Assembly (NCBI GenBank): GCA_036274695.1
Contig: DASUFF010000030.1
Span: 2,510-66,509, forward strand
Length of the DNA: 64,000 bases
DNA from: a bacterium
Lineage (GTDB): Bacteria; UBA10199; JACPAL01; GCA-016699445
Direction of reading: 5' to 3'
Shown: positions 2,001 through 61,790 of the stretch, in pieces
How the letters are laid out: every line of letters starts with the position of its first letter
How positions within the stretch are numbered: the first letter of the stretch is position 1
Program-made: the position numbers and the translations under genes
The notes under the pieces: model-generated
Seen by the model: the letters and a program-made list of their open reading frames with translations, nothing else
Database searches by the model: none
What the model was told of the DNA's origin: nothing

Positions 2001-4393
2001 AGGGGGTTCGCCGTTCTTAAGACGCTGTCGGGCGTCGGGTTGGAGAAGGAGCACGTCAGTACGGTGCCTCCGTCGTCGCCTGACTTGATGTCGAGCACCC
2101 CGTTGATCATGCGCGCGCGGTATTTCATGATGTGCAGGCCGATTCCGGATCCCGGCTGCGTCTCGGCGCCGCCGGTGCCGTTATCTTCCACCGAAAGCGA
2201 CATCATGCTCCCTTGTTTTATCAGGCTCAAGTCTATCTTTTTCGCGCGCCCGTGCTTCACCGAGTTGCGCACGGCCTCCTGGGCGATCCGGTAGAGATGG
2301 GTGGCTAGGTCGTTGTCATCGATCAAGATGGGCTTGGGACAGACGAAGCGGCAGTCCACTCCGTAGCCGGTCGAGGTCCGGGACGCCAAGTCCTTCAGCG
2401 CGATCATGAGCGAATCGCCCTCGAGCTCGACGGGGTAGAACCCGCGGGCCATGTCTCGGGCCTGGGTGATCGACTGATCCAGGAGCTCGGCGATCTTCTT
2501 CATCTCGGGCGCCTCAGGCAGTTCGCGGCGTTCCATTTTCTGGGTGAGGACCTTCGCCAGGATCATGATGCCCGTCAAATCCTGGCAGAGGTCGTCGTGC
2601 AGATGGGTGCCGAGGCGCTTCTGCTCCTTCTCGCTGATCTCCAAGACCTCCTTCTCGACGCGTTTGCGCTCCAGGATCTCGGCCTTGAGGGTCTCGTTGA
2701 TGAGGGCCATCTGCGCGGTTCGCTGCTGGACGCGCTTCTCCATCTCGTCGTAGGCGAGCTTCAAATCGTATTCCGTCTTTTTTCTCTCCAGATACTGGCC
2801 GATCTCGCTGCCGATGAGTTCCAGGGATTGGAGAAGCTCGGGGTCGGGCTCTTCGAGCCGGTTCTCGAAGAATTCCATGACGCCCAGGATTTCGTCTCCC
2901 AACCGGATGGGAAAACCGAATCCGCTGCGAAGCCCGGATTGGATGGCCAAATCGGCATTCGGAAAGTTGGGATCGAGCGACAGGTCGTGGATCCAAAAGG
3001 CCTTGCCCAGGCTCCAAATGCGTCCCGGAAGGCCGACGTCCGGGGCGAGGGTCAGTCCCATCTTCGCCGACCGGAACGGCTCGTAGGTGGCGGGCGGCCG
3101 GATCCAAACGCGGCGGCATTGGATTTCCTCTTTCTCAGGGGAAACCTCCCAATAAGCTCCGAAGGCCCAGCCCAAGCCTTCGCAGACCGTCTGAAGGATG
3201 CCGTCGAAAAGCTCCTCGGTGGACAGGTCTTTCGCCAGAAATTGAGTGATTTTGTGTTCCATCTCCTGGCGCCGTTCTGCGACCTTGCGGTCGGTGATGT
3301 CGATCGCCGACCCGATGTAGCCCAAGAGCCTGCGGTCGGAGGTGAAGCGCGGCCGTCCCGTCTCCAGGACCCAGCGGTAGCGGCCGTCCGCGCGAAGGAG
3401 CCGGTATTCGGTCCGGAAGTCTTCCCGCGCGTGGAACGCCCCGAGATATGCGTCCACGCAGGCCGCTCGGTCGTCCGGGTGCACGCCTTCCGTCCATCCG
3501 TGCCCCTGCTCCTGCCTCAAGGTGCGGCCGCGGAAGGCGAGCCAGGGCTCGTTGAAATAGTAGCAGAGGGCGTCGGGACCGGACATCCAGACCATGACGG
3601 GCGCCTGGTCGGCGACCATGCGGAAGCGGGCCTCGCTCTCGCTCAAGGCGTTCTCGGCCTCCTTGCGCAAGGTGATGTCGTAGATGTGGACCGAGACGCC
3701 TTCGCTGGAAGGGGCGATGTGGATTTCGTAGGACCGCGACTTCTCGACGTCGCTGAACTCGAACTCGGAGCCCTCTTTAAGGTCCGCCGCCTTCCGGAGG
3801 TTCGTCTCGAACTCCGTATCCTTCCATCCGGGAAAGGCCTCCCATACGCTCTTTCCGTAGAGGGCTTCGCGCGGGTACGGCAGGATCTCCTTGCTGTCCT
3901 CGTTGATGTGGGTGAAGCGGTCTTCCTCGTCCAGGCTGAAGAAGCACCCCTGCACGCTGTCCAAGATGTTGCTGATCTTGTTTTGCGAGATCAGGAGGTC
4001 TTGATAGGTCCGCTGCTGTTTTTTCAGCGTTTGGCGCAGATTTTCCGTCAGCCGGCAGATGACCAGACCGACGAAGGCGAAAAGGGTCAGGTGGAGCAAG
4101 TCCACCTTGGCCGGGATCGCGAGCGCGCCCCGCGGTTCGATGAAGAAATACGTGGCGGCGAGCAGGCCGGCCAGGACGGAGGCGACTCCGGGGCCGAGTC
4201 CGCCGTACCACGCCGCGACGATCACGACCGGGTAATAAAAAACGAAAGGGGAGAGCGTCGGGCCGAAAATCGGCGCGGCCAGGGAGCTCAAGATCGTCGC
4301 CAGGCCCACGGAAAGGAGGGCGAGCCCGTAACGGAAAACGGGCCCGCGCCCCATCATCCTGCCGGGGGCCGGATTTTTATCCTTCGGCGCCAT
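1997..4393 (-). CDS. Membrane sensor histidine kinase: DUF4118-like membrane module, two PAS domains, a GAF domain, HisKA_3 and HATPase_c
   Basis: The HisKA_3 H-box reads HLHDDLCQDLTGIM. The C-terminus has an ATPase G-box. PAS and GAF blocks are visible in the translation. I take the start at MAPKDK (4393), because a start at 4519 would overlap the divergent transporter gene. Confidence 0.8.
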   Translation of the reverse strand: MAPKDKNPAPGRMMGRGPVFRYGLALLSVGLATILSSLAAPIFGPTLSPFVFYYPVVIVAAWYGGLGPGVASVLAGLLAATYFFIEPRGALAIPAKVDLLHLTLFAFVGLVICRLTENLRQTLKKQQRTYQDLLISQNKISNILDSVQGCFFSLDEEDRFTHINEDSKEILPYPREALYGKSVWEAFPGWKDTEFETNLRKAADLKEGSEFEFSDVEKSRSYEIHIAPSSEGVSVHIYDITLRKEAENALSESEARFRMVADQAPVMVWMSGPDALCYYFNEPWLAFRGRTLRQEQGHGWTEGVHPDDRAACVDAYLGAFHAREDFRTEYRLLRADGRYRWVLETGRPRFTSDRRLLGYIGSAIDITDRKVAERRQEMEHKITQFLAKDLSTEELFDGILQTVCEGLGWAFGAYWEVSPEKEEIQCRRVWIRPPATYEPFRSAKMGLTLAPDVGLPGRIWSLGKAFWIHDLSLDPNFPNADLAIQSGLRSGFGFPIRLGDEILGVMEFFENRLEEPDPELLQSLELIGSEIGQYLERKKTEYDLKLAYDEMEKRVQQRTAQMALINETLKAEILERKRVEKEVLEISEKEQKRLGTHLHDDLCQDLTGIMILAKVLTQKMERRELPEAPEMKKIAELLDQSITQARDMARGFYPVELEGDSLMIALKDLASRTSTGYGVDCRFVCPKPILIDDNDLATHLYRIAQEAVRNSVKHGRAKKIDLSLIKQGSMMSLSVEDNGTGGAETQPGSGIGLHIMKYRARMINGVLDIKSGDDGGTVLTCSFSNPTPDSVLRTANPL

Positions 4394-4472
4394 TGAAAAG
4401 GAAGTGTAGCCCTCCGGGGACCCGGGGTCAAAACGAGTCCCGGTTTGACCGGAAGGCCCGAGGGGTTTATGG

Positions 4473-5576
4473 GTGAAGGCCATGGCGAACTCCACGAAGA
4501 CCGAGCAGAAGGCGTTCATCGCTTTGCTGGGTCTGCTCGTCGTCCTCGTCTGCTTTCTCCTTTATCCCTTTTTGAACGCGATCATCCTGGCGATCGTCTT
4601 CGCCGTCCTCTTTCAGCCCGTCCATCGAAGGTGTCTGAAATGGACGGGCGGCCGCGAGAACGTCACCTCTTTTCTGTCGACCGCTGCGGTGGTCGTCTTT
4701 CTCGTGCTTCCGCTGGCGGCGTTCCTGACGCTGGTGGCCGGCCAATTGGCGGATTTGGCGGCCGACCAAGCTCCATCGACGCAGCCTTCGGTTTCCGACG
4801 TCATCTTTTATCTGCAACGGAAGCTTACTTACCTGAGCGGAAAATTCGAGAAATTTATCGGAATCCAGCTCGATCTGGTGCCAGTCGTCCGCAAGGGAAT
4901 GTCTCAAATCGGACAGTCCGTGGCCCGCTATTCCCCTCAGGTCCTGGCCGGGACCGCCAATTTTTTCCTGCATCTTTTCGTCATGCTGACCCTCCTGTTC
5001 TATCTTTTCCGGGACGGGAAGAAGTTCATCCAGGCCTTGATCCGCATCACGCCGATCAAGGACCGCTACGAGCGGAAGCTGGCCGGGGAGATTCAGGAAA
5101 CCATCGAGGGCGTCTTCTACGGCAGTTTTCTCACGGCCCTTTTGCAGGGAGCGGTGGCCCTGGTCGGGTTCTTCGTCATCGGAGTCGAGGGCTCCTTCGT
5201 CTGGAGCGTGATCACGTTCTTCACGTCCTTCCTGCCCACGATCGGGACGGGCGCCGTGACGGTGCCTCTTTTCATCACCCTGCTCCTTCAGGGAAATACG
5301 ACGAAGGCTCTGGCGGTGCTGGCGTACGGCGGAATCGTCATCGGCGGCATCGATCAGGTCCTTCGCCCCTTCCTCATGCGCTCCAACATCCACCCGATGC
5401 TCCTCTTCCTGGGCATCTTCGGCGGGCTGGTCGTTTTCGGCCCGATCGGGCTGCTTTTGGGGCCCTTGCTCATGGCCCTCGTGACCGCCACGATCAGGAT
5501 TTACGCGGAGGATTTCGCGGGCGTCGACCTCCCGCAGGTGACTTCGGAGAAAAAGCCCAGAAGCGGCAAAACTTGA
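4473..5576 (+). CDS. AI-2E family transporter (PerM/YhhT, UPF0118)
   Basis: An eight-TM profile. Conserved GxxGxxLGP-type C-terminal blocks (FGPIGLLLGPLLMAL) are typical of AI-2E/UPF0118. Confidence 0.75.
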   Translation: MKAMANSTKTEQKAFIALLGLLVVLVCFLLYPFLNAIILAIVFAVLFQPVHRRCLKWTGGRENVTSFLSTAAVVVFLVLPLAAFLTLVAGQLADLAADQAPSTQPSVSDVIFYLQRKLTYLSGKFEKFIGIQLDLVPVVRKGMSQIGQSVARYSPQVLAGTANFFLHLFVMLTLLFYLFRDGKKFIQALIRITPIKDRYERKLAGEIQETIEGVFYGSFLTALLQGAVALVGFFVIGVEGSFVWSVITFFTSFLPTIGTGAVTVPLFITLLLQGNTTKALAVLAYGGIVIGGIDQVLRPFLMRSNIHPMLLFLGIFGGLVVFGPIGLLLGPLLMALVTATIRIYAEDFAGVDLPQVTSEKKPRSGKT

Positions 5577-7874: not shown

Positions 7875-7962
7875 CGGAGGGGGAGGGATTCGAACCCCCG
7901 ATACCCGTAAGGGTATACCTGATTTCGAGTCAGGCGCCTTCAACCAACTCGGCCACCCCTCC
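7875..7962 (-). tRNA. tRNA-Ser (anticodon CGA), type II with a long variable arm
   Basis: The minus-strand sequence is GGAGGGGTGGCCGAGTTGGTTGAAGGCGCCTGACTCGAAATCAGG...TATACCCTTACGGGTATC...GGGGGTTCGAATCCCTCCCCCTCCG. It has a 7-bp acceptor stem, an anticodon loop CTCGAAA, and a 6-bp variable-arm stem. Confidence 0.85.
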
Positions 7963-26813: not shown

Positions 26814-26886
26814 TGCGCCCGGTAGGAATCGAACCTACGACCCACAGCTTAGAAGGCTGTTGCTCTATCCCCTGAGCTACGGGCGC
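26814..26886 (-). tRNA. tRNA-Arg (anticodon TCT)
   Basis: The minus-strand sequence is GCGCCCGTAGCTCAGGGGATAGAGCAACAGCCTTCTAAGCTGTGGGTCGTAGGTTCGATTCCTACCGGGCGCA. The cloverleaf is canonical and the anticodon loop is CTTCTAA. Confidence 0.9.
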
Positions 26887-56172: not shown

Positions 56173-59100
56173 ATGTCAGAAACCAAATTCCTAGTCGGCG
56201 TCGACGTCGGTTCCACCACGGTCAAGGCGGTCGTCGTTGAAGTGGCCACCGACAAGATGATCTGGAGCGACTACCAGCGTCACGAGACCAAGCAGCCGGA
56301 AAAGACCCTCGAGCTCTTGAAGGAGATCGAGGACAAGACCGGCGTCTGCGCCGGCAACACCCGGATGTTCATCACGGGCTCCGGCGGCGGGGGGATCGGC
56401 GCGCGGTTGGGCGCCAAGTTCGTCCAGGAAGTGAACGCGGTTTCGCTGGCGGTGGAAAAGCTTCATCCGGAGGTTCAGTCCGTCGTCGAGTTGGGCGGCC
56501 AGGACGCCAAGATGATCTTCTTCAAGGAGATCGAGGAATCCGGAAAAAAGAAAAAGATGCCGACGATGAACGATAAATGCGCCGGCGGCACGGGCGCCGT
56601 CATCGACAAGATCAACGCCAAGTTGCGCATCCCCTCGGAACAGCTCTGCCAATTGGGACACACGGGCATCAAGCTGCATCCCGTCGCCGGCAAGTGCGGC
56701 GTGTTCGCCGAGTCCGACATCAACTCGCTGCAGAAAATGGGCATTCCGAACGACGAGCTCATGGCGTCGCTGTTCGAATCCATCATCGTTCAAAACCTGT
56801 CGGTTTTGACTCGGGGCAATACCCTCAAGCCCACCGTCCTCCTGTTGGGCGGCCCCAATTGTTATATCAAGGGCATGAAGGAAGCCTGGCGGAACAACAT
56901 CCCCAAAATCTGGGAAGAGCGCGGCGTGGAAGTGCCGGACAAACCCATCGAAGAATTGATCAAGGTCCCGGAGAACGCCCAGTACTACGCGGCGTTGGGC
57001 GCCATCGAGTACGGCAAGACGGAGGACGAGGACATCGGCCAATACAAAGGCGCCGGCGAACTCGAGCACTACATCAAGGTCGGCCGTCAGGAAGAAATGG
57101 CGAAAAAGGCGGCCCAAAGCGGCGGCGGCAAGGGCTTGATCAAGGACGAAGCGGAGTTAAACGAATTCCTGGATCGCTATAAGAAGGAAAAATTCATCCC
57201 CACGACGTTCGAAGCGGGAACGGTGGTGGAGGGGTTCATCGGTTTGGACGGCGGTTCGACGTCGACCAAGGCCGTGCTCGTCAGCAAGGACAAGAAGATT
57301 TTGGCCAAGGCCTACCAGCTTTCGAAGGGCAATCCGATCCAGGACACCATCGAGGTCATCGGAAATCTGCAAAAAATGATCGAGGACCAGGGCTGCACGA
57401 TGAACGTCTTGGGCATCGGGACGACCGGTTACGCCAAGGACATCTTGAAGGATACTCTGAACGGCGACGCCGCCATCGTGGAAACGGTCGCGCACACGGA
57501 ATCCGCCCTGCATTTTTATCCGGATACGGACGTCATCGTCGACGTCGGCGGGCAGGACATCAAGGTGATGATCCTGAAGAACGGCCGCGTCAAAGACTTC
57601 AAGCTCAACACCCAGTGCTCCGCCGGCAACGGTTACTTTCTGCAGTCGACCGCCCAAGGCTTCGGCGTTCCCGTGGAAGATTTCGCCGCGAAGGCCTTCT
57701 CGGCGAAGACGTTCCCGGAATTCGGCTACGGCTGCGCCGTCTTCATGCAGTCCGACATCGTCGATTTTCAGCGCCAGGGTTGGAAGCCGGAAGAGATCAT
57801 GGCGGGACTCGCCAACGTGTTGCCGAAAAACATCTGGCTCTACGTCTCTCAGATCCCGAATCTGTCTTCGCTCGGCACCAAGTTCGTCCTGCAAGGCGGC
57901 ACCCAGCATAATATGGCGGCGGTCAAATCCCAGGTGGATTTCATCGAATCGCGCTTCAAGGACAAGGGGCTCAAGCCCGACGTCGTCGTTCACAAGCACT
58001 GCGGCGAGGCCGGGGCCATCGGCGCCGGCATCGAAGCCGCGCGCCTTTACGCCAACGGGCATCGCACGAAGTTTATCGGGTTGGACCGCGTGAAGGAGAT
58101 CACCTACCGCACCACCCGCAGCGAAGAGACGCGATGTTACTTCTGCAAGAACAAGTGCCTGCGCACGTTTATCGACGTGAAGACGAAGAGCACGACGGAG
58201 ATTAAGGCGGAAGACGTGCCGGTGTTCAAGTCGAAGGTGCCGCTGGAGCCGGGAGAGAATCGGATCATCATCGCCACCTGCGAAAAGGGCACGGTCGAGG
58301 ACGTCAACGCCATGCGCGGCATCAAGAAGGGGCTGGACGCCATCAAGGAGAAGAACCCCAACATGGTCCACTGGGCCGCGGAGAACGTTTGGAAGTCGTT
58401 CAAGCCGCCCTTGGTGGCAGACGCGATCCCGGAAAAGATCAAGAACGATAAGATGAAGGCGCGCGTCGAGCTTATGAAGCGTCGCGCCGAGCTGAAAATC
58501 GGCATCCCGCGCGTGCTCAATCAGTATTCGACGAACCCGTTGTTCACGGCCTACTTCGAATCGCTGGGGATCCAGCCGCAGAACATCGTCTATTCCGACT
58601 TCACCGACGAGAAGCTCTACAAGGACGGCGCCAAGCGCGGCGCGATTGATCCGTGCTTCCCGTCCAAGGTCGGTATCCCGCACGTGCACAATCTGCTCTT
58701 CACGCAGCACGAGAAGAAGAAGCTCGATTACATCTTCTTTCCGATGATCGACGATTTGCTCACGCCCTTGAAGAACGTCCAGGCCAGCCGCGCCTGCCCG
58801 ACCGTCACCGCGACGCCGGAGGCCGTGAAGGCCGCGTTCACCAAGGAAGGCGACATCTTCGCGGAAAAGGGGATCAAGTACCTTGACACCTTCGTGAACG
58901 TCGGTACGCCGAAACTCTTCGAACGCCAGATGTTCGAGCAGTTCGTGGATATCCTCGGGCTCTCGCCCGAGGAGAACGCCCGCGCCGTCGCCGAAGGCTA
59001 CAAGGCTTTGAAGGCTTTCGACGATACGCAGCGGATCATGGGACGCGAGACCATCGAAATGTTGGAAAAGGAAAACCGCCTCGGCGTCGTCTTGCTCGGC

Positions 59101-59655
59101 CGCCCGTACCACAACGATCCCGGAATCAATCACGAGATCTTGGAGGAGTTCCAAAAATTGGGCTATCCGGTGCTCACGCAGGATTCCTTGCCGATCGATC
59201 GGGACATCTTGGATCGGTTGTTCGGCGAAGAGGTCGAGAAGGGGATCGTGAGCCACGCGTTGGACGTCAAGGACGCCTGGAAAAACTCCTACTCCGAGAA
59301 CACCACGCGCAAGGTTTGGGCCGCGAAGTTCGCCGCGCGCCATCCGAACCTGGTGGCCTTGGAGCTCTCCAGTTTCAAGTGCGGTCACGACGCGCCGGTC
59401 TACACCGTGGTGGAAGAAGTCATCGAGCACTCGGGCACGCCCTACTTCTGCTTCAAGGACATCGACGAGAACAAGCCCACCGGATCGATCAAGATCCGCT
59501 TGGAGACGATGCACTACTTCCTGACCCGCTACCGCGAGGACATGCTCAAGGCCGAGAAGAAGCTGGAAGGCATCGAGGCGGAATTGAAGGCCTACGAAGA
59601 ACAGTTGCGGCGGGAGTTGGGGGCGGGGTATCAGCCGAGCGTCGTTAATTTGTAG
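56173..59655 (+). CDS. CoA-substrate-specific enzyme activase fusion: two BadF/BadG/BcrA/BcrD-type ATPase domains plus a C-terminal 2-hydroxyacyl-CoA-dehydratase-like region
   Basis: It is 1160 aa. The two ASKHA phosphate-1 loops are VGVDVGSTTVKAVVV and IGLDGGSTSTKAVLV. The C-terminal half has conserved Cys blocks (ASRACPTV, SSFKCGHDAPV). Confidence 0.75.
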   Translation: MSETKFLVGVDVGSTTVKAVVVEVATDKMIWSDYQRHETKQPEKTLELLKEIEDKTGVCAGNTRMFITGSGGGGIGARLGAKFVQEVNAVSLAVEKLHPEVQSVVELGGQDAKMIFFKEIEESGKKKKMPTMNDKCAGGTGAVIDKINAKLRIPSEQLCQLGHTGIKLHPVAGKCGVFAESDINSLQKMGIPNDELMASLFESIIVQNLSVLTRGNTLKPTVLLLGGPNCYIKGMKEAWRNNIPKIWEERGVEVPDKPIEELIKVPENAQYYAALGAIEYGKTEDEDIGQYKGAGELEHYIKVGRQEEMAKKAAQSGGGKGLIKDEAELNEFLDRYKKEKFIPTTFEAGTVVEGFIGLDGGSTSTKAVLVSKDKKILAKAYQLSKGNPIQDTIEVIGNLQKMIEDQGCTMNVLGIGTTGYAKDILKDTLNGDAAIVETVAHTESALHFYPDTDVIVDVGGQDIKVMILKNGRVKDFKLNTQCSAGNGYFLQSTAQGFGVPVEDFAAKAFSAKTFPEFGYGCAVFMQSDIVDFQRQGWKPEEIMAGLANVLPKNIWLYVSQIPNLSSLGTKFVLQGGTQHNMAAVKSQVDFIESRFKDKGLKPDVVVHKHCGEAGAIGAGIEAARLYANGHRTKFIGLDRVKEITYRTTRSEETRCYFCKNKCLRTFIDVKTKSTTEIKAEDVPVFKSKVPLEPGENRIIIATCEKGTVEDVNAMRGIKKGLDAIKEKNPNMVHWAAENVWKSFKPPLVADAIPEKIKNDKMKARVELMKRRAELKIGIPRVLNQYSTNPLFTAYFESLGIQPQNIVYSDFTDEKLYKDGAKRGAIDPCFPSKVGIPHVHNLLFTQHEKKKLDYIFFPMIDDLLTPLKNVQASRACPTVTATPEAVKAAFTKEGDIFAEKGIKYLDTFVNVGTPKLFERQMFEQFVDILGLSPEENARAVAEGYKALKAFDDTQRIMGRETIEMLEKENRLGVVLLGRPYHNDPGINHEILEEFQKLGYPVLTQDSLPIDRDILDRLFGEEVEKGIVSHALDVKDAWKNSYSENTTRKVWAAKFAARHPNLVALELSSFKCGHDAPVYTVVEEVIEHSGTPYFCFKDIDENKPTGSIKIRLETMHYFLTRYREDMLKAEKKLEGIEAELKAYEEQLRRELGAGYQPSVVNL

Positions 59656-59661
59656 AAAAAC

Positions 59662-59699
59662 ATAGGTCCTATGGGGCCTATACGACTTATAGGACTTAT
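59662..59699. repeat. Degenerate copy of a 38-bp palindromic element
   Basis: CATAGGTCCTATGGGGCCTATACGACTTATAGGACTTAT. The right half matches the perfect copy at 60144..60181 with one mismatch. Confidence 0.6.
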
Positions 59700-59979
59700 G
59701 TCTTTTGAATCTCAGAAAATCTTGTTTCAAATTTACAGAGAAGGCAGCTTCAACCGCCGTTACCGCGTGGTGTACTTCACCGAACTGGGCGACAAGAACA
59801 AAGAGAGCGAGATCAACCACGCCCTGGCGGGCGACCCCATCTACGACGGCTTCATCAAGGACTTCCGCAAGGACGAGGCCAAGGCCATTATTGACCGGCA
59901 TCTCGATGCTTTAAACAACGGCGAGAGCTTTAATGCCGAGCAGTTCAAGCAGGATCTAAAGTCTTACATGCCATCCTAA
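59698..59979 (+). CDS. Small hypothetical protein (93 aa) with codon usage that strongly prefers C-ending codons
   Basis: The ORF begins immediately after the palindromic element. Its codon usage (AAC, AAG, GAC, ATC, TTC bias) differs from the surrounding genes. Confidence 0.4.
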   Translation: MSFESQKILFQIYREGSFNRRYRVVYFTELGDKNKESEINHALAGDPIYDGFIKDFRKDEAKAIIDRHLDALNNGESFNAEQFKQDLKSYMPS

Positions 59980-60524
59980 AATCTGCGGTGCTGCCTGCGG
60001 GCCTGATACAGGCGCTCGGTAAAGCCGCCTTCCTCTAAAAATTTTCTTTCTAGTTGCCGGAGCTGTTGGTCGAGCAGGTAGTTGGCTTGGTGAATCAGAC
60101 AAAGGGCGGTGTTGGCCGCGGTTTCCGGGTCCCCGCGTTCAAAATAAGTCCTATAGGTCGTATACGACCTATAGGACTTATACCCAAGTTGCCTCACCTC
60201 GAGAGCGCGCAGGTCGTTCTTGCTCCACAAAGTAAGGCCGCGCTGTCTTAAAAAATCCTCAAAATCGAGCAGGAGTTCCTCCAAGCTAGCGCGGGCTACC
60301 CCCATCAGTTTCAGCTCTGTCTTTTTAGAGGTGCCGGAGGCCATGCTTCCTTCGGCGATGTTCTGTTTGCCGCTGCGGGCGGCTTGAACCATTTGGTCGT
60401 GGGTGCGGGATCTTCGCTCAATGAACCGGTCGCAGAACCGCAGCGTGGCGTCATAGATGATTTCCGCGGTCTGGTAGGACTTCAGGTTTCGATAGCCGCC
60501 ATGAGAGGGAATGAGCTCAGTCAT
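59976..60524 (-). CDS. Four-helix-bundle protein (TIGR02436 / 23S rRNA intervening-sequence protein family), interrupted in-frame by a palindromic insert
   Basis: The N-terminal two-thirds matches the family pattern (…SGKQNIAEGS…SLEELLLDF…). The segment GYKSYRSYTTYRTYFE is encoded exactly by the 38-bp palindrome. This gene uses atypical codons (AGA, TTA, GTA, CGA). Confidence 0.55.
   Translation of the reverse strand: MTELIPSHGGYRNLKSYQTAEIIYDATLRFCDRFIERRSRTHDQMVQAARSGKQNIAEGSMASGTSKKTELKLMGVARASLEELLLDFEDFLRQRGLTLWSKNDLRALEVRQLGYKSYRSYTTYRTYFERGDPETAANTALCLIHQANYLLDQQLRQLERKFLEEGGFTERLYQARRQHRRF
60144..60181. repeat. Perfect 38-bp palindrome ATAAGTCCTATAGGTCGTATACGACCTATAGGACTTAT
   Basis: I verified the exact reverse-complement symmetry by eye. 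It lies inside the four-helix-bundle ORF. Confidence 0.9.
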
Positions 60525-60628
60525 GCCGAACTAGCACAATCGGTGCCAATAAAATCGAGCTTGGCGATTCGCCAAAAAGACCGAAATTCTGGATTCCAAA
60601 GTACGAATTTTAGACCTATGTCTGGGGC

Positions 60629-60955: not shown

Positions 60956-61091
60956 TTTTAACCCATCCCCGTTGCCCGGGATTCCGCAACCCATTCCTAA
61001 AGATTTGATTTTAAAAGAAAAGCTCTAGGGACCTTCGAAGGTCCGGTTGGCATGTCCGTTGCTTTCCTCCAAAGACAACAAGGAGAACGAC

Positions 61092-61790
61092 ATGACCGAT
61101 GCACCGACTTTTCAGCTGACCGGCACCTTTGTCCCCGTCACCGTCGAATCGATGCCCCCGGACGACAGTTCCTTGCCGAGCGACGTTCGGACCTATTCGC
61201 TGACCTTGGACGACGGCAATGCGGCCGATCCCACGCATCGCATTTACGAAAAAGTGACCATCTATCAGCCGCCCGACGGCCGGCCGGTGAGCGCGGACTA
61301 CGACCGGACCATGCGGGAGCACAATCCGCCTCTCGAACGCCATTTGGTGCCGATCGGCAATCACTACGAAGTCGCTTACATGACCAATTACGATTGGAAC
61401 CGATATCAAGAGGCCTATACGTCTTTGCTCTCCGCACGGGAGGAGACCGTTCGATCCCACAGCCTGATGTCCGACCTGGGCGTCGGCCCGGCCTCGAATC
61501 CGATGTTCCGCCCGGCCGCGCGGCCGTTCAATGAGGTGATGTTCGTTCAGGATTTCGACGTGCCCACCGCCGCGCTGGGGCATTTGCGCCGCACGGATCT
61601 CGCCATTCCCGGCCGCACCGGAGAGTTGTTCGACGCGCGCGGTTTCGTGGCCACCAACACCGCCGCCGAGGACTTTCTGATTTCGAGGGGCTACGTGCAG
61701 GTCGGGACGCGCGTGGAGAACGGCGCCATCCGCCCCTTGTTCCTGCCACCCCTCGACGCCCAGCTTTACCGGGAATCGGGTACCATCTAA
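61092..61790 (+). CDS. Hypothetical protein (232 aa)
   Basis: An SD AAGGAGA lies before the ATG. It is a coding-like ORF with no recognisable motif. Confidence 0.45.
   Translation: MTDAPTFQLTGTFVPVTVESMPPDDSSLPSDVRTYSLTLDDGNAADPTHRIYEKVTIYQPPDGRPVSADYDRTMREHNPPLERHLVPIGNHYEVAYMTNYDWNRYQEAYTSLLSAREETVRSHSLMSDLGVGPASNPMFRPAARPFNEVMFVQDFDVPTAALGHLRRTDLAIPGRTGELFDARGFVATNTAAEDFLISRGYVQVGTRVENGAIRPLFLPPLDAQLYRESGTI

Follow-up and report, generated by a model that had tools for sequence, protein, structure and literature searches.

The stretch analysed here, referred to as the window, comprises 64,000 nt of contig DASUFF010000030.1 (assembly GCA_036274695.1) from a bacterium of the GTDB lineage UBA10199, and contains on its minus strand a small gene of the four-helix-bundle (4HB) family with an exact palindrome within its coding sequence. 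The palindrome is an in-frame internal array of 9-nt repeat units, and such an array defines a large sub-family of TIGR04258 proteins, the genes of which are called here 4HB-suffix genes. Tandem arrays of these units are also found at the borders of 4HB-suffix genes, and in many bacteria solo arrays stand by the stop codons of genes unrelated to them. In the window, two separate acquisitions, a 43-nt solo array and a 4HB gene with its upstream DNA (approximately 649 nt), flank one host gene in a packed operon. The probable explanation is a horizontally spreading 4HB gene bordered by arrays and carrying one array in frame, accompanied by an independent solo array similar to repetitive extragenic palindromic (REP) sequences.

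The palindrome ATAAGTCCTATAGGTCGTATACGACCTATAGGACTTAT, located at positions 60144-60181, is 38 nt long, with arms of 19 nt and no spacer; none of 100 shuffled sequences gave such a palindrome. The minus-strand open reading frame (ORF) 59976-60524 reads LGYKSYRSYTTYRTYFE, and the palindrome lies in frame there, encoding the peptide YKSYRSYTTYRTY. An earlier reading of the same DNA, made from the sequence only, had noted this palindrome in the minus-strand ORF, as well as a degenerate copy about 480 bp away adjoining the start of a small ORF, and both observations were confirmed. The second copy (59662-59699) is identical to the palindrome in 33 of 38 positions, with 85% identity over 41 nt (59659-59699) and 87% complementarity over 38 nt, and its end falls in the ATG of the ORF 59698-59979. 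A scan for half-sites revealed 7 matches versus 0.06 expected. Beyond this pair of arrays, the 64 kb contain no other repeat of at least 30 nt, except for ordinary GC-rich coding similarity.

Both copies in the window consist of about four 9-nt units of the type TAT-NNG-WCN. In the internal array, two units of the GTC type precede two of the GAC type, and the unit core, GGWCC-TATA, is nearly self-complementary; therefore, a run of GTC-type units followed by a run of GAC-type units is automatically a palindrome, and this order of units accounts for the perfect palindrome at 60144-60181. Among 72 genes of the family, the 19-nt perfect arm of the window gene is the extreme, the arms of the other 71 being 4-12 nt long. 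The perfection of the palindrome is a local peculiarity, which may be attributed to recent homogenisation inside the array.

The segment RSYxTY[RK]TY is invariant and of equal length in 22 aligned homologues, the invariant residues being R119, S120, Y121, T123, Y124 and Y127. A Tyr-x-Ser/Thr segment, represented in the window by four units, was drawn from this alignment as the working criterion of the family. The palindrome had been suspected to be an insertion relative to homologues; for close homologues this is ruled out by the alignment, in which all 22 keep the segment at the same length. The preservation of the segment without palindromic DNA had been named as evidence against a mobile or regulatory element: the segment is indeed kept in homologues, but the repeat-type DNA is kept too.

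Codon usage in the motif was compared with that in the remainder of the same 72 genes, without correction for phylogeny. Tyrosine is encoded by TAT in 170 of 180 cases within the motif (94%) versus 237 of 461 elsewhere (51%; p 1e-28), and arginine by AGG in 72 of 91 cases (79%) versus 129 of 1191 (11%; p 9e-46); the codons AAG, AAT, GAG and TTG are likewise enriched in the motif. The variable 'x' codon encodes 12 amino acids, yet its third base is G in 64 of the 72 genes. The constraint on the motif acts at the nucleotide level, on the 9-nt unit. The number of units in homologues varies from 3 to 11, always in frame; the internal array of locus L066 (loci compared with the window bear numbers with the letter L) comprises 11 units and reads SHASHESHRSHASHESHRCHGTYVTYETYRTY, and that of L064 comprises 8 units. 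In these two loci, the switch from GTC-type (SH/xSH) to GAC-type (TY) units is kept, and the long insert is palindromic again. A separate sub-family possesses another unit, (NNG TCN GAC)n, encoding xSD repeats (SD-type).

The surroundings of the gene were surveyed in the 81 closest loci, at least two units being counted as an array. Downstream arrays starting no more than 50 nt past the stop codon were found in 19 of the 81 loci, and in 9 of these 19 the stop codon TAG/TAA is the first unit. Upstream arrays, located 15-171 nt before the conserved HGG codon, are present in 13 of the 81 loci, and some of them supply the start codon or N-terminal residues. The density of arrays is 1.2 per kb downstream and 0.8 per kb upstream versus 0.013 per kb over the other 524 kb, that is, about 60-90 times the background at the borders. 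Unit types inside and outside the genes agree: TAT-type genes never have SD-type flanks, and a TAT-type flank was found in 0 of 7 SD-type genes. In L050, the upstream flank (3961-3987) repeats without change 25 nt (GTCGGACAAGTCAGACCAGTCGGAC) from the start of the SD-type internal array of the same gene (4343-4405), which suggests that one array was copied locally or that the two underwent gene conversion. In 24 loci, the gene's own flank matches the internal array in 14.9 of 18 positions versus 14.2 of 18 for the flanks of other loci (p 0.02). Complementary arrays are present at both borders in other members of the family, whereas the window cassette has a possible one-unit remnant at one border. 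Locus L042 contains two 4HB-suffix paralogues on the same strand, about 400 nt apart (3041-3610 and 4001-4531), one with an (xSD)n and the other with a (Yx[ST])n internal array.

These border arrays bear directly on an explanation by protein requirement, according to which the palindrome is a by-product of the need for a Tyr-x-Ser/Thr segment, and neither the second copy nor any other array is more than a simple repeat unrelated to it. The six invariant residues, the ordered state of the segment in the structural model described below and the occurrence of Y..SY..Y without the DNA pattern in distant homologues are consistent with it. Nevertheless, this explanation was already disfavoured and is very improbable: synonymous choices and the third base of the free codon are fixed across phyla of diverse GC content, identical noncoding units stand right at the gene borders at 60-90 times the background, and the variation in length tracks the 9-nt unit.

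Solo arrays were searched for in metagenome contigs by means of the pattern of four consecutive units, TAT..G.C. x4, and were detected on at least 120 contigs; the counts that follow refer to the matches listed. The gene is present on only 6 of the 120 array contigs. Neighbours of solo arrays belong to 161 Pfam families, and PF05635 tops the recurring ones with 3 members, each other recurring family being represented by 2. The median distance from a solo array to a stop codon is 33 nt, and 11 arrays overlap the stop; the surrounding gene pairs are tandem in 39 cases, convergent in 24 and divergent in 9. Of 127 arrays, 71 are one-directional tandem arrays and 27 are mixed or palindromic, as in the window. 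Two or more solo arrays enclose individual genes of unrelated type, such as a starch-synthase-like gene, in L160 (1752-1798 and 3505-3543), L191 (7396-7443 and 8496-8534) and L264, which hints at arrays bracketing genes other than the 4HB gene. A scan of viral contigs with the pattern CCTATAGGNCCTATAGG matched for the most part coding repeats of the collagen-like (Gly-Pro-Ile)n type, and no 4HB gene was among the matches; this pattern was confounded and was replaced. The viral contigs L084-L147 also contain a few intergenic arrays, without any 4HB gene (L088, L100, L110, L112 and L121).

The two copies in the window had also been proposed to be an operator pair. Their identity of 33 of 38 positions is equalled or exceeded by the arrays of at least 7 unrelated contigs; so close a match is found between unrelated arrays too, and the copies therefore do not represent a specific operator pair. 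Gene conversion between the copies and an invertible segment were rejected together with the operator pair, since the identity is not special and L272 contains the junction array without the gene. Inversion between the copies would place a stop three codons past the repeat, truncating the protein, and is contradicted by synteny.

The ancestral gene order was found in the relatives L269 and L081-L083, in which genes for a 1160-aa BcrAD_BadFG/DUF2229 protein, a 93-aa protein, a Zn-ribbon protein, a GST-like protein and a DUF1232 protein all abut one another. In relatives, the start of the 93-aa gene is invariably fused to the stop of the BcrAD_BadFG/DUF2229 gene ahead of it, the overlap at this first junction being TTGTAATG. 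Alignment of the window with L081, L082, L083 and L269 revealed a clean 43-nt gap at the first junction, occupied in the window by the solo array (Table 1). L270, L272 and L273 contain a homologous 38-nt array at the same junction, and in L272 no PF05635 gene was found within 10 kb upstream or within the 4.4 kb downstream, where the contig ends. In L271, the same stop/start junction contains TAGGGGCTGTATG (30-47), a one-unit footprint that looks like a single degenerate unit remaining after contraction of an array. The junction array is polymorphic within the lineage.

At the second junction, the Zn-ribbon gene begins 1-3 nt after the 93-aa gene in L083 and L269 versus 649 nt in the window. 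The stop of the 4HB gene overlaps that of the 93-aa gene (CTAA), and the GC content of the cassette is 0.535 versus 0.615 in the window. At the upstream border of the cassette, TTAGACCTAT resembles the TTAGACC units in the flank arrays of L001, L020 and L068; by its sequence it is a weak candidate for an array unit, since a single unit could be due to chance.

Table 1. Features of the window around the two insertions (positions in the window)
Feature	Position	Strand	Remarks
1160-aa BcrAD_BadFG/DUF2229 host gene	56173..59655	+	Stop TAG now formed at the array junction
Solo array, 43 nt: G AAAAAC + four 9-nt units	59655..59697	.	Separates the 1160-aa gene's stop codon from the 93-aa gene's ATG
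93-aa host gene, function unassigned	59698..59979	+	Between the two insertions, outside the element; 569 homologues
4HB-suffix gene, 182 aa	59976..60524	-	TIGR02436/PF05635 N-terminal part and TIGR04258 C-terminal domain; acquired DNA
Inserted cassette, ~649 nt (approximate extent)	59980..60628	-	4HB gene and 104 nt of upstream DNA
Internal array	60144..60181	-	Four 9-nt units TATAAGTCC TATAGGTCG TATACGACC TATAGGACT + TAT, peptide YKSYRSYTTYRTY
Terminator-like hairpin TTGGCGAATCGCCAA + T-rich tail	60560..60576	- (4HB strand)	Upstream region of the cassette; predicted by consensus scan
Possible single-unit remnant TTAGACCTAT	60610..60619	.	Upstream border of the cassette, 9 nt before the Zn-ribbon ATG
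Zn-ribbon host gene, 108 aa	60629..60955	+	Directly after the 93-aa gene in relatives

The gene and the second copy represent acquired DNA, because both are absent from L081, L082, L083 and L269 and the codon usage of the gene is foreign; the suggestion of horizontal acquisition was thus borne out. Atypical codons had been ascribed to both the 4HB gene and the small ORF. For the former this holds: the G+C content of third codon positions (GC3) is 0.665 versus 0.80-0.89 in the long genes of the window, AGA and AGG encode 8 of 22 arginines versus 0 of 42 in the adjoining 1160-aa gene, and the ratio TAT:TAC is 8:2 versus 7:26 in the 1160-aa gene; TTA is also used twice and GTA once. For the small ORF, which is the 93-aa gene, it does not hold: its C-ending codons are the norm of the host (TAC 5:0, GC3 0.73).

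Other rearrangements were found in the same operon. A 247-aa ORF (window 61047-61790) is located between the Zn-ribbon and GST-like genes, has a homologue in L083 and no PADLOC match; the Zn-ribbon and GST-like genes overlap in L269, and the ORF is another variable insertion. Hairpins (AGCCACCGATTTAAATCGGTGGCT or CCGCGGATTTAAATCCGTGG) are present directly past the 93-aa gene in L272 (10283-10500) and L082 (4283-4310), and the Zn-ribbon gene of L272 has the reverse orientation. These differences mark the second junction as a hot spot of rearrangement within the lineage.

Within its named family the window gene is unexceptional, and its assignment to the PF05635/TIGR02436 4HB proteins by the sequence-only reading agrees with the profile matches. 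TIGR04258 (NCBIfam) is matched with 84.8 bits (cutoff 40) by residues 133-181, which cover the full model (1-49), and TIGR02436 (NCBIfam) with 35.5 bits (cutoff 24) by residues 15-85; the match to PF05635 (Pfam), 32.5 bits, is slightly below the cutoff of 33.8. These are the sole profile matches of the protein in Pfam and NCBIfam. The N-terminal core with the NIAEG motif, used as a family criterion, is present, as is every invariant residue of the aligned family. Alignment with canonical 4HB proteins by hhalign gave 86% probability over helices 1-3 and nothing beyond these. The AlphaFold2 (AF2) model, with a pLDDT of 86, is all-helical, and the motif is confidently ordered in it as a loop plus a short helix (121-129); according to Foldseek, the best specific match of the predicted structure in the PDB is the PF05635 protein 2rld (probability 0.98). 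More than 8000 homologues were found. The best 80 genomic loci share 60-82% identity and represent about 20 phyla, including Patescibacteria, Chloroflexi, Clostridia and Bacteroidota.

PF05635 is the family of Avd (PMC10053308), and the arrays could accordingly be considered as cis-acting sites for the 4HB-suffix protein itself, an Avd-like nucleic-acid binder. They would serve as operators or handles, either for autoregulation or for upkeep and spread of the arrays, as in REP-associated tyrosine transposases (RAYT), and the two copies in the window would be functionally linked. The proximity of arrays to the start and stop codons of 4HB-suffix genes agrees with this, as do the unit type shared by internal and flank arrays, including the exact 25-nt copy in L050, the slightly closer similarity of each gene's own flank to its internal array, and the ratio of one gene per many arrays, which is that of REP and RAYT. 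The fixed unit positions T1, A2, T3, G6 and C8 are conserved in the manner of sequence-specific recognition and not of structure. However, 114 of the 120 array loci among the matches listed have no such gene on the contig, no PF05635 gene lies within 10 kb upstream or 4.4 kb downstream of the array of L272, the copies in the window are not unusually similar to each other, and the 4HB-suffix protein contains no known catalytic motif. The explanation by protein sites is therefore considered unlikely. A related proposal, tentative and made by analogy, is that the (TAT-NNG-WCN)n arrays are undescribed phylum-spanning mobile repeats and that the TIGR04258 Avd-like protein might be their dedicated, unit-recognising partner, as RAYT is for REP; this is possible, although doubtful.

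As RNA, the palindrome folds with -27.9 kcal/mol (z -6.7) and the second copy with -22.6 kcal/mol (z -5.0), and in plus-strand RNA the junction array pairs with the AUG of the small ORF, which could conceivably play a part in translational coupling. Such folds are what would be expected if the hairpins were RNA signals, either sites of processing by RNase III or another enzyme or mRNA stabilisers, excising or insulating the 4HB transcript in host operons. The mutual complementarity of arrays flanking a gene, the pairing of the AUG, suitable for structure-dependent coupling, and the location of solo arrays at gene 3' ends with an excess of convergent pairs, as for REP and ERIC-type mRNA elements, also fit this explanation. 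Family-wide data, however, make it improbable. The fold energy per 60 nt is -15.3 kcal/mol in the motif region versus -16.9 kcal/mol in control regions of the same genes, and perfect arms are mostly 4-7 nt long. The standard 30-nt core is present in 42 genes, in which Watson-Crick pairing reaches at least 93% at 6 of the 11 stem pairs only because they are invariant unit positions. The one informative pair is TA in 9 genes, CG in 8 and non-Watson-Crick in 25, so that covariation is weak. Mismatches of the G-T and A-C types number 11 and 12, respectively, and neither RNA strand is favoured; in addition, 71 of the 127 solo arrays are one-directional.

A conserved RNA or DNA hairpin was rejected on the grounds of weak covariation, lack of strand asymmetry and a family-wide stability no better than that of controls. 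An intrinsic terminator was also rejected: the terminator scan flags neither copy, and T-runs occur at 28% of solo arrays versus 20% of control positions, which is no enrichment. The arrays have no match in Rfam, and the gathering scan of all 64 kb revealed no rRNA and only two tRNA genes, both on the minus strand (window 7875-7962 and 26814-26886). The hairpin as such is mostly not what is conserved; the 9-nt unit is. The analogy with intervening sequences (IVS) of 23S rRNA processed by RNase III, drawn earlier from the sequence, was not upheld, given the absence of rRNA from the window, the folding of the motif like controls and the one-directional structure of most solo arrays.

The preferred explanation, an array-bordered spreading gene next to an independent solo array, may be formulated as follows. 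The arrays would be selfish repeats similar to REP or to Rickettsia palindromic elements (RPE), growing and shrinking unit by unit, and the 4HB-suffix gene would move as a cassette bordered by arrays, with one array in frame within the protein. The nucleotide pattern may be maintained by a reader of each 9-nt unit, acting through sequence-specific recognition or templated homogenisation. Every unit contains a stop codon, TAG/TAA, in one frame on both strands, and the AGGA core is Shine-Dalgarno-like; gene junctions would tolerate arrays because each unit brings a stop codon along with the AGGA core and TATG starts. The gene has spread horizontally, judging by the 60-82% identity over about 20 phyla in the best 80 loci and by junctions inside unrelated operons. 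These data point to the 4HB-suffix gene as a repeat-associated selfish gene.

A number of observations weigh against this explanation. The pattern of the solo-array census was self-defined, so the unit consensus is partly circular, and the codon statistics are uncorrected for phylogeny. No duplicated bases were found at the 43-nt insertion (between TTGTA and ATG), and a miniature inverted-repeat element or transposon was rejected there for lack of a target-site duplication. Known mobility genes, such as those for a transposase or an integrase, are absent from the cassette. One plasmid record and no phages contain the gene, and carriage on phages or plasmids was rejected, the gene being nearly absent from both. 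Finally, the motif is ordered in the AF2 model, and a 43%-identical homologue from Prevotella nigrescens (L268, NZ_CP082843.1) keeps the Y..SY peptide without the nucleotide pattern; therefore, selection at the protein level contributes too. The Prevotella homologue has no TAT-type internal array and possesses a coiled-coil C-terminal extension, and its gene is followed by a different 9-nt-periodic palindromic array, TAGGGTTCC TAGGAATAC TAGGAACCC (L268 5630-5720).

The genomic contexts of the gene in other bacteria include defence operons. In 18 of the 81 closest loci, among them L006, L009, L011, L014, L019, L022, L025, L031 and L039, the gene is located between cas7 and cas4 of type I-C CRISPR-Cas systems, in the order Cas5d-Csd1-Cas7-[4HB]-Cas4-Cas1-Cas2, at about 4001-4540 in each locus. 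The start codon of cas4 lies inside the 3' array of the 4HB gene (TAG GTC TTA TAT GAC CAA T ATG ACC TAT...). In type I restriction-modification (R-M) operons, the gene adjoins hsdM and hsdS, in some cases standing between the two, in L038, L057 and about 10 further loci, and several members of the family bear the JGI label 'restriction system protein'. A figure legend of a CRISPR-linkage screen names '23S rRNA IVP' (Altae-Tran et al. 2023, PMC10910872). No cas or hsd genes were found near the window copy, and the 4HB protein and three neighbours have no PADLOC match; a known anti-phage defence protein was rejected accordingly.

The locus offers clean empty and filled sites for one PF05635-type gene and ties this gene to a class of 9-nt repeats conserved as nucleotides inside and outside coding DNA. 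The literature searched contained nothing on internal, bordering or solo 9-nt arrays of the family. If the protein were the dedicated partner of the arrays, this would explain the recurrence of the gene in type I-C CRISPR and type I R-M operons; a functional link would represent a new repeat-plus-protein system comparable to REP/RAYT and would account for the additional gene seen repeatedly between cas7 and cas4. Even in the absence of a functional link, the locus provides a clear example from bacteria of a repeat array that is fixed in frame within a conserved protein.

Genes of PF05635 4HB proteins are among the commonest unexplained small genes of bacteria and occur in rRNA IVS, as Avd of diversity-generating retroelements (DGR), and as inserts in restriction and CRISPR operons. 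The window protein is similar to the PF05635/Avd superfamily in scoring above both NCBIfam cutoffs (TIGR04258 and TIGR02436) and in its predicted structure, which matches 2rld; it differs in that its gene lies outside an rRNA gene. In 23S rRNA, IVS with the S23p/PF05635 ORF are located in helix 25 or 45 of the 23S gene, and their stems are cut by RNase III. The window locus shares with them a small 4HB gene within another transcription unit, in family members often bordered by mutually complementary repeats. However, its host is a protein operon and the borders of its cassette contain no complementary pair; an IVS in rRNA was rejected, since the 64 kb contain no rRNA according to Rfam and the flanks are protein genes. 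A DGR with Avd as an accessory protein was rejected because the 64-kb window contains no template/variable repeat pair. Among the adjoining ORFs, the 93-aa and Zn-ribbon genes gave no match to reverse transcriptase in Pfam, and comparison with NCBIfam and PADLOC revealed none either, the ORFs of the window at large not having been scanned for this domain. With the CRISPR-linked genes named '23S rRNA IVP' in the figure legend (PMC10910872), the family shares the position between cas7 and cas4 in 18 of the 81 closest loci; unlike these, the operon around the window copy is metabolic, and cas or hsd genes are absent from its vicinity.

The arrays resemble REP/RAYT and RPE by analogy only. REP sequences and bacterial interspersed mosaic elements (BIME) are short, partly palindromic repeats of 20-40 nt, located past stops and in operons, with many copies per genome. 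RAYT is a single REP-associated gene, itself flanked by repeats ('REPtrons'), encoding an HUH/Y1 (IS200/IS605-like) transposase. As with REP and RAYT, the arrays flank an associated gene and sit at the 3' ends of genes. The differences are a 9-nt tandem unit, the prevalence of arrays that are not hairpins (27 of 127 mixed or palindromic among the matches listed) and an associated protein that is a helical bundle with no match to an HUH/Y1 transposase. RPE are selfish, lineage-restricted elements of 100-150 bp, found in frame in many different genes. The window element differs from them in being carried within genes at one fixed position of a single gene family, in its distribution across phyla, in its variable number of units and in the location of the segment within a conserved fold. 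Similar to RPE, it is a repeat of palindromic structure, is found in intergenic DNA as well, and is tolerated in frame as a segment of a peptide.

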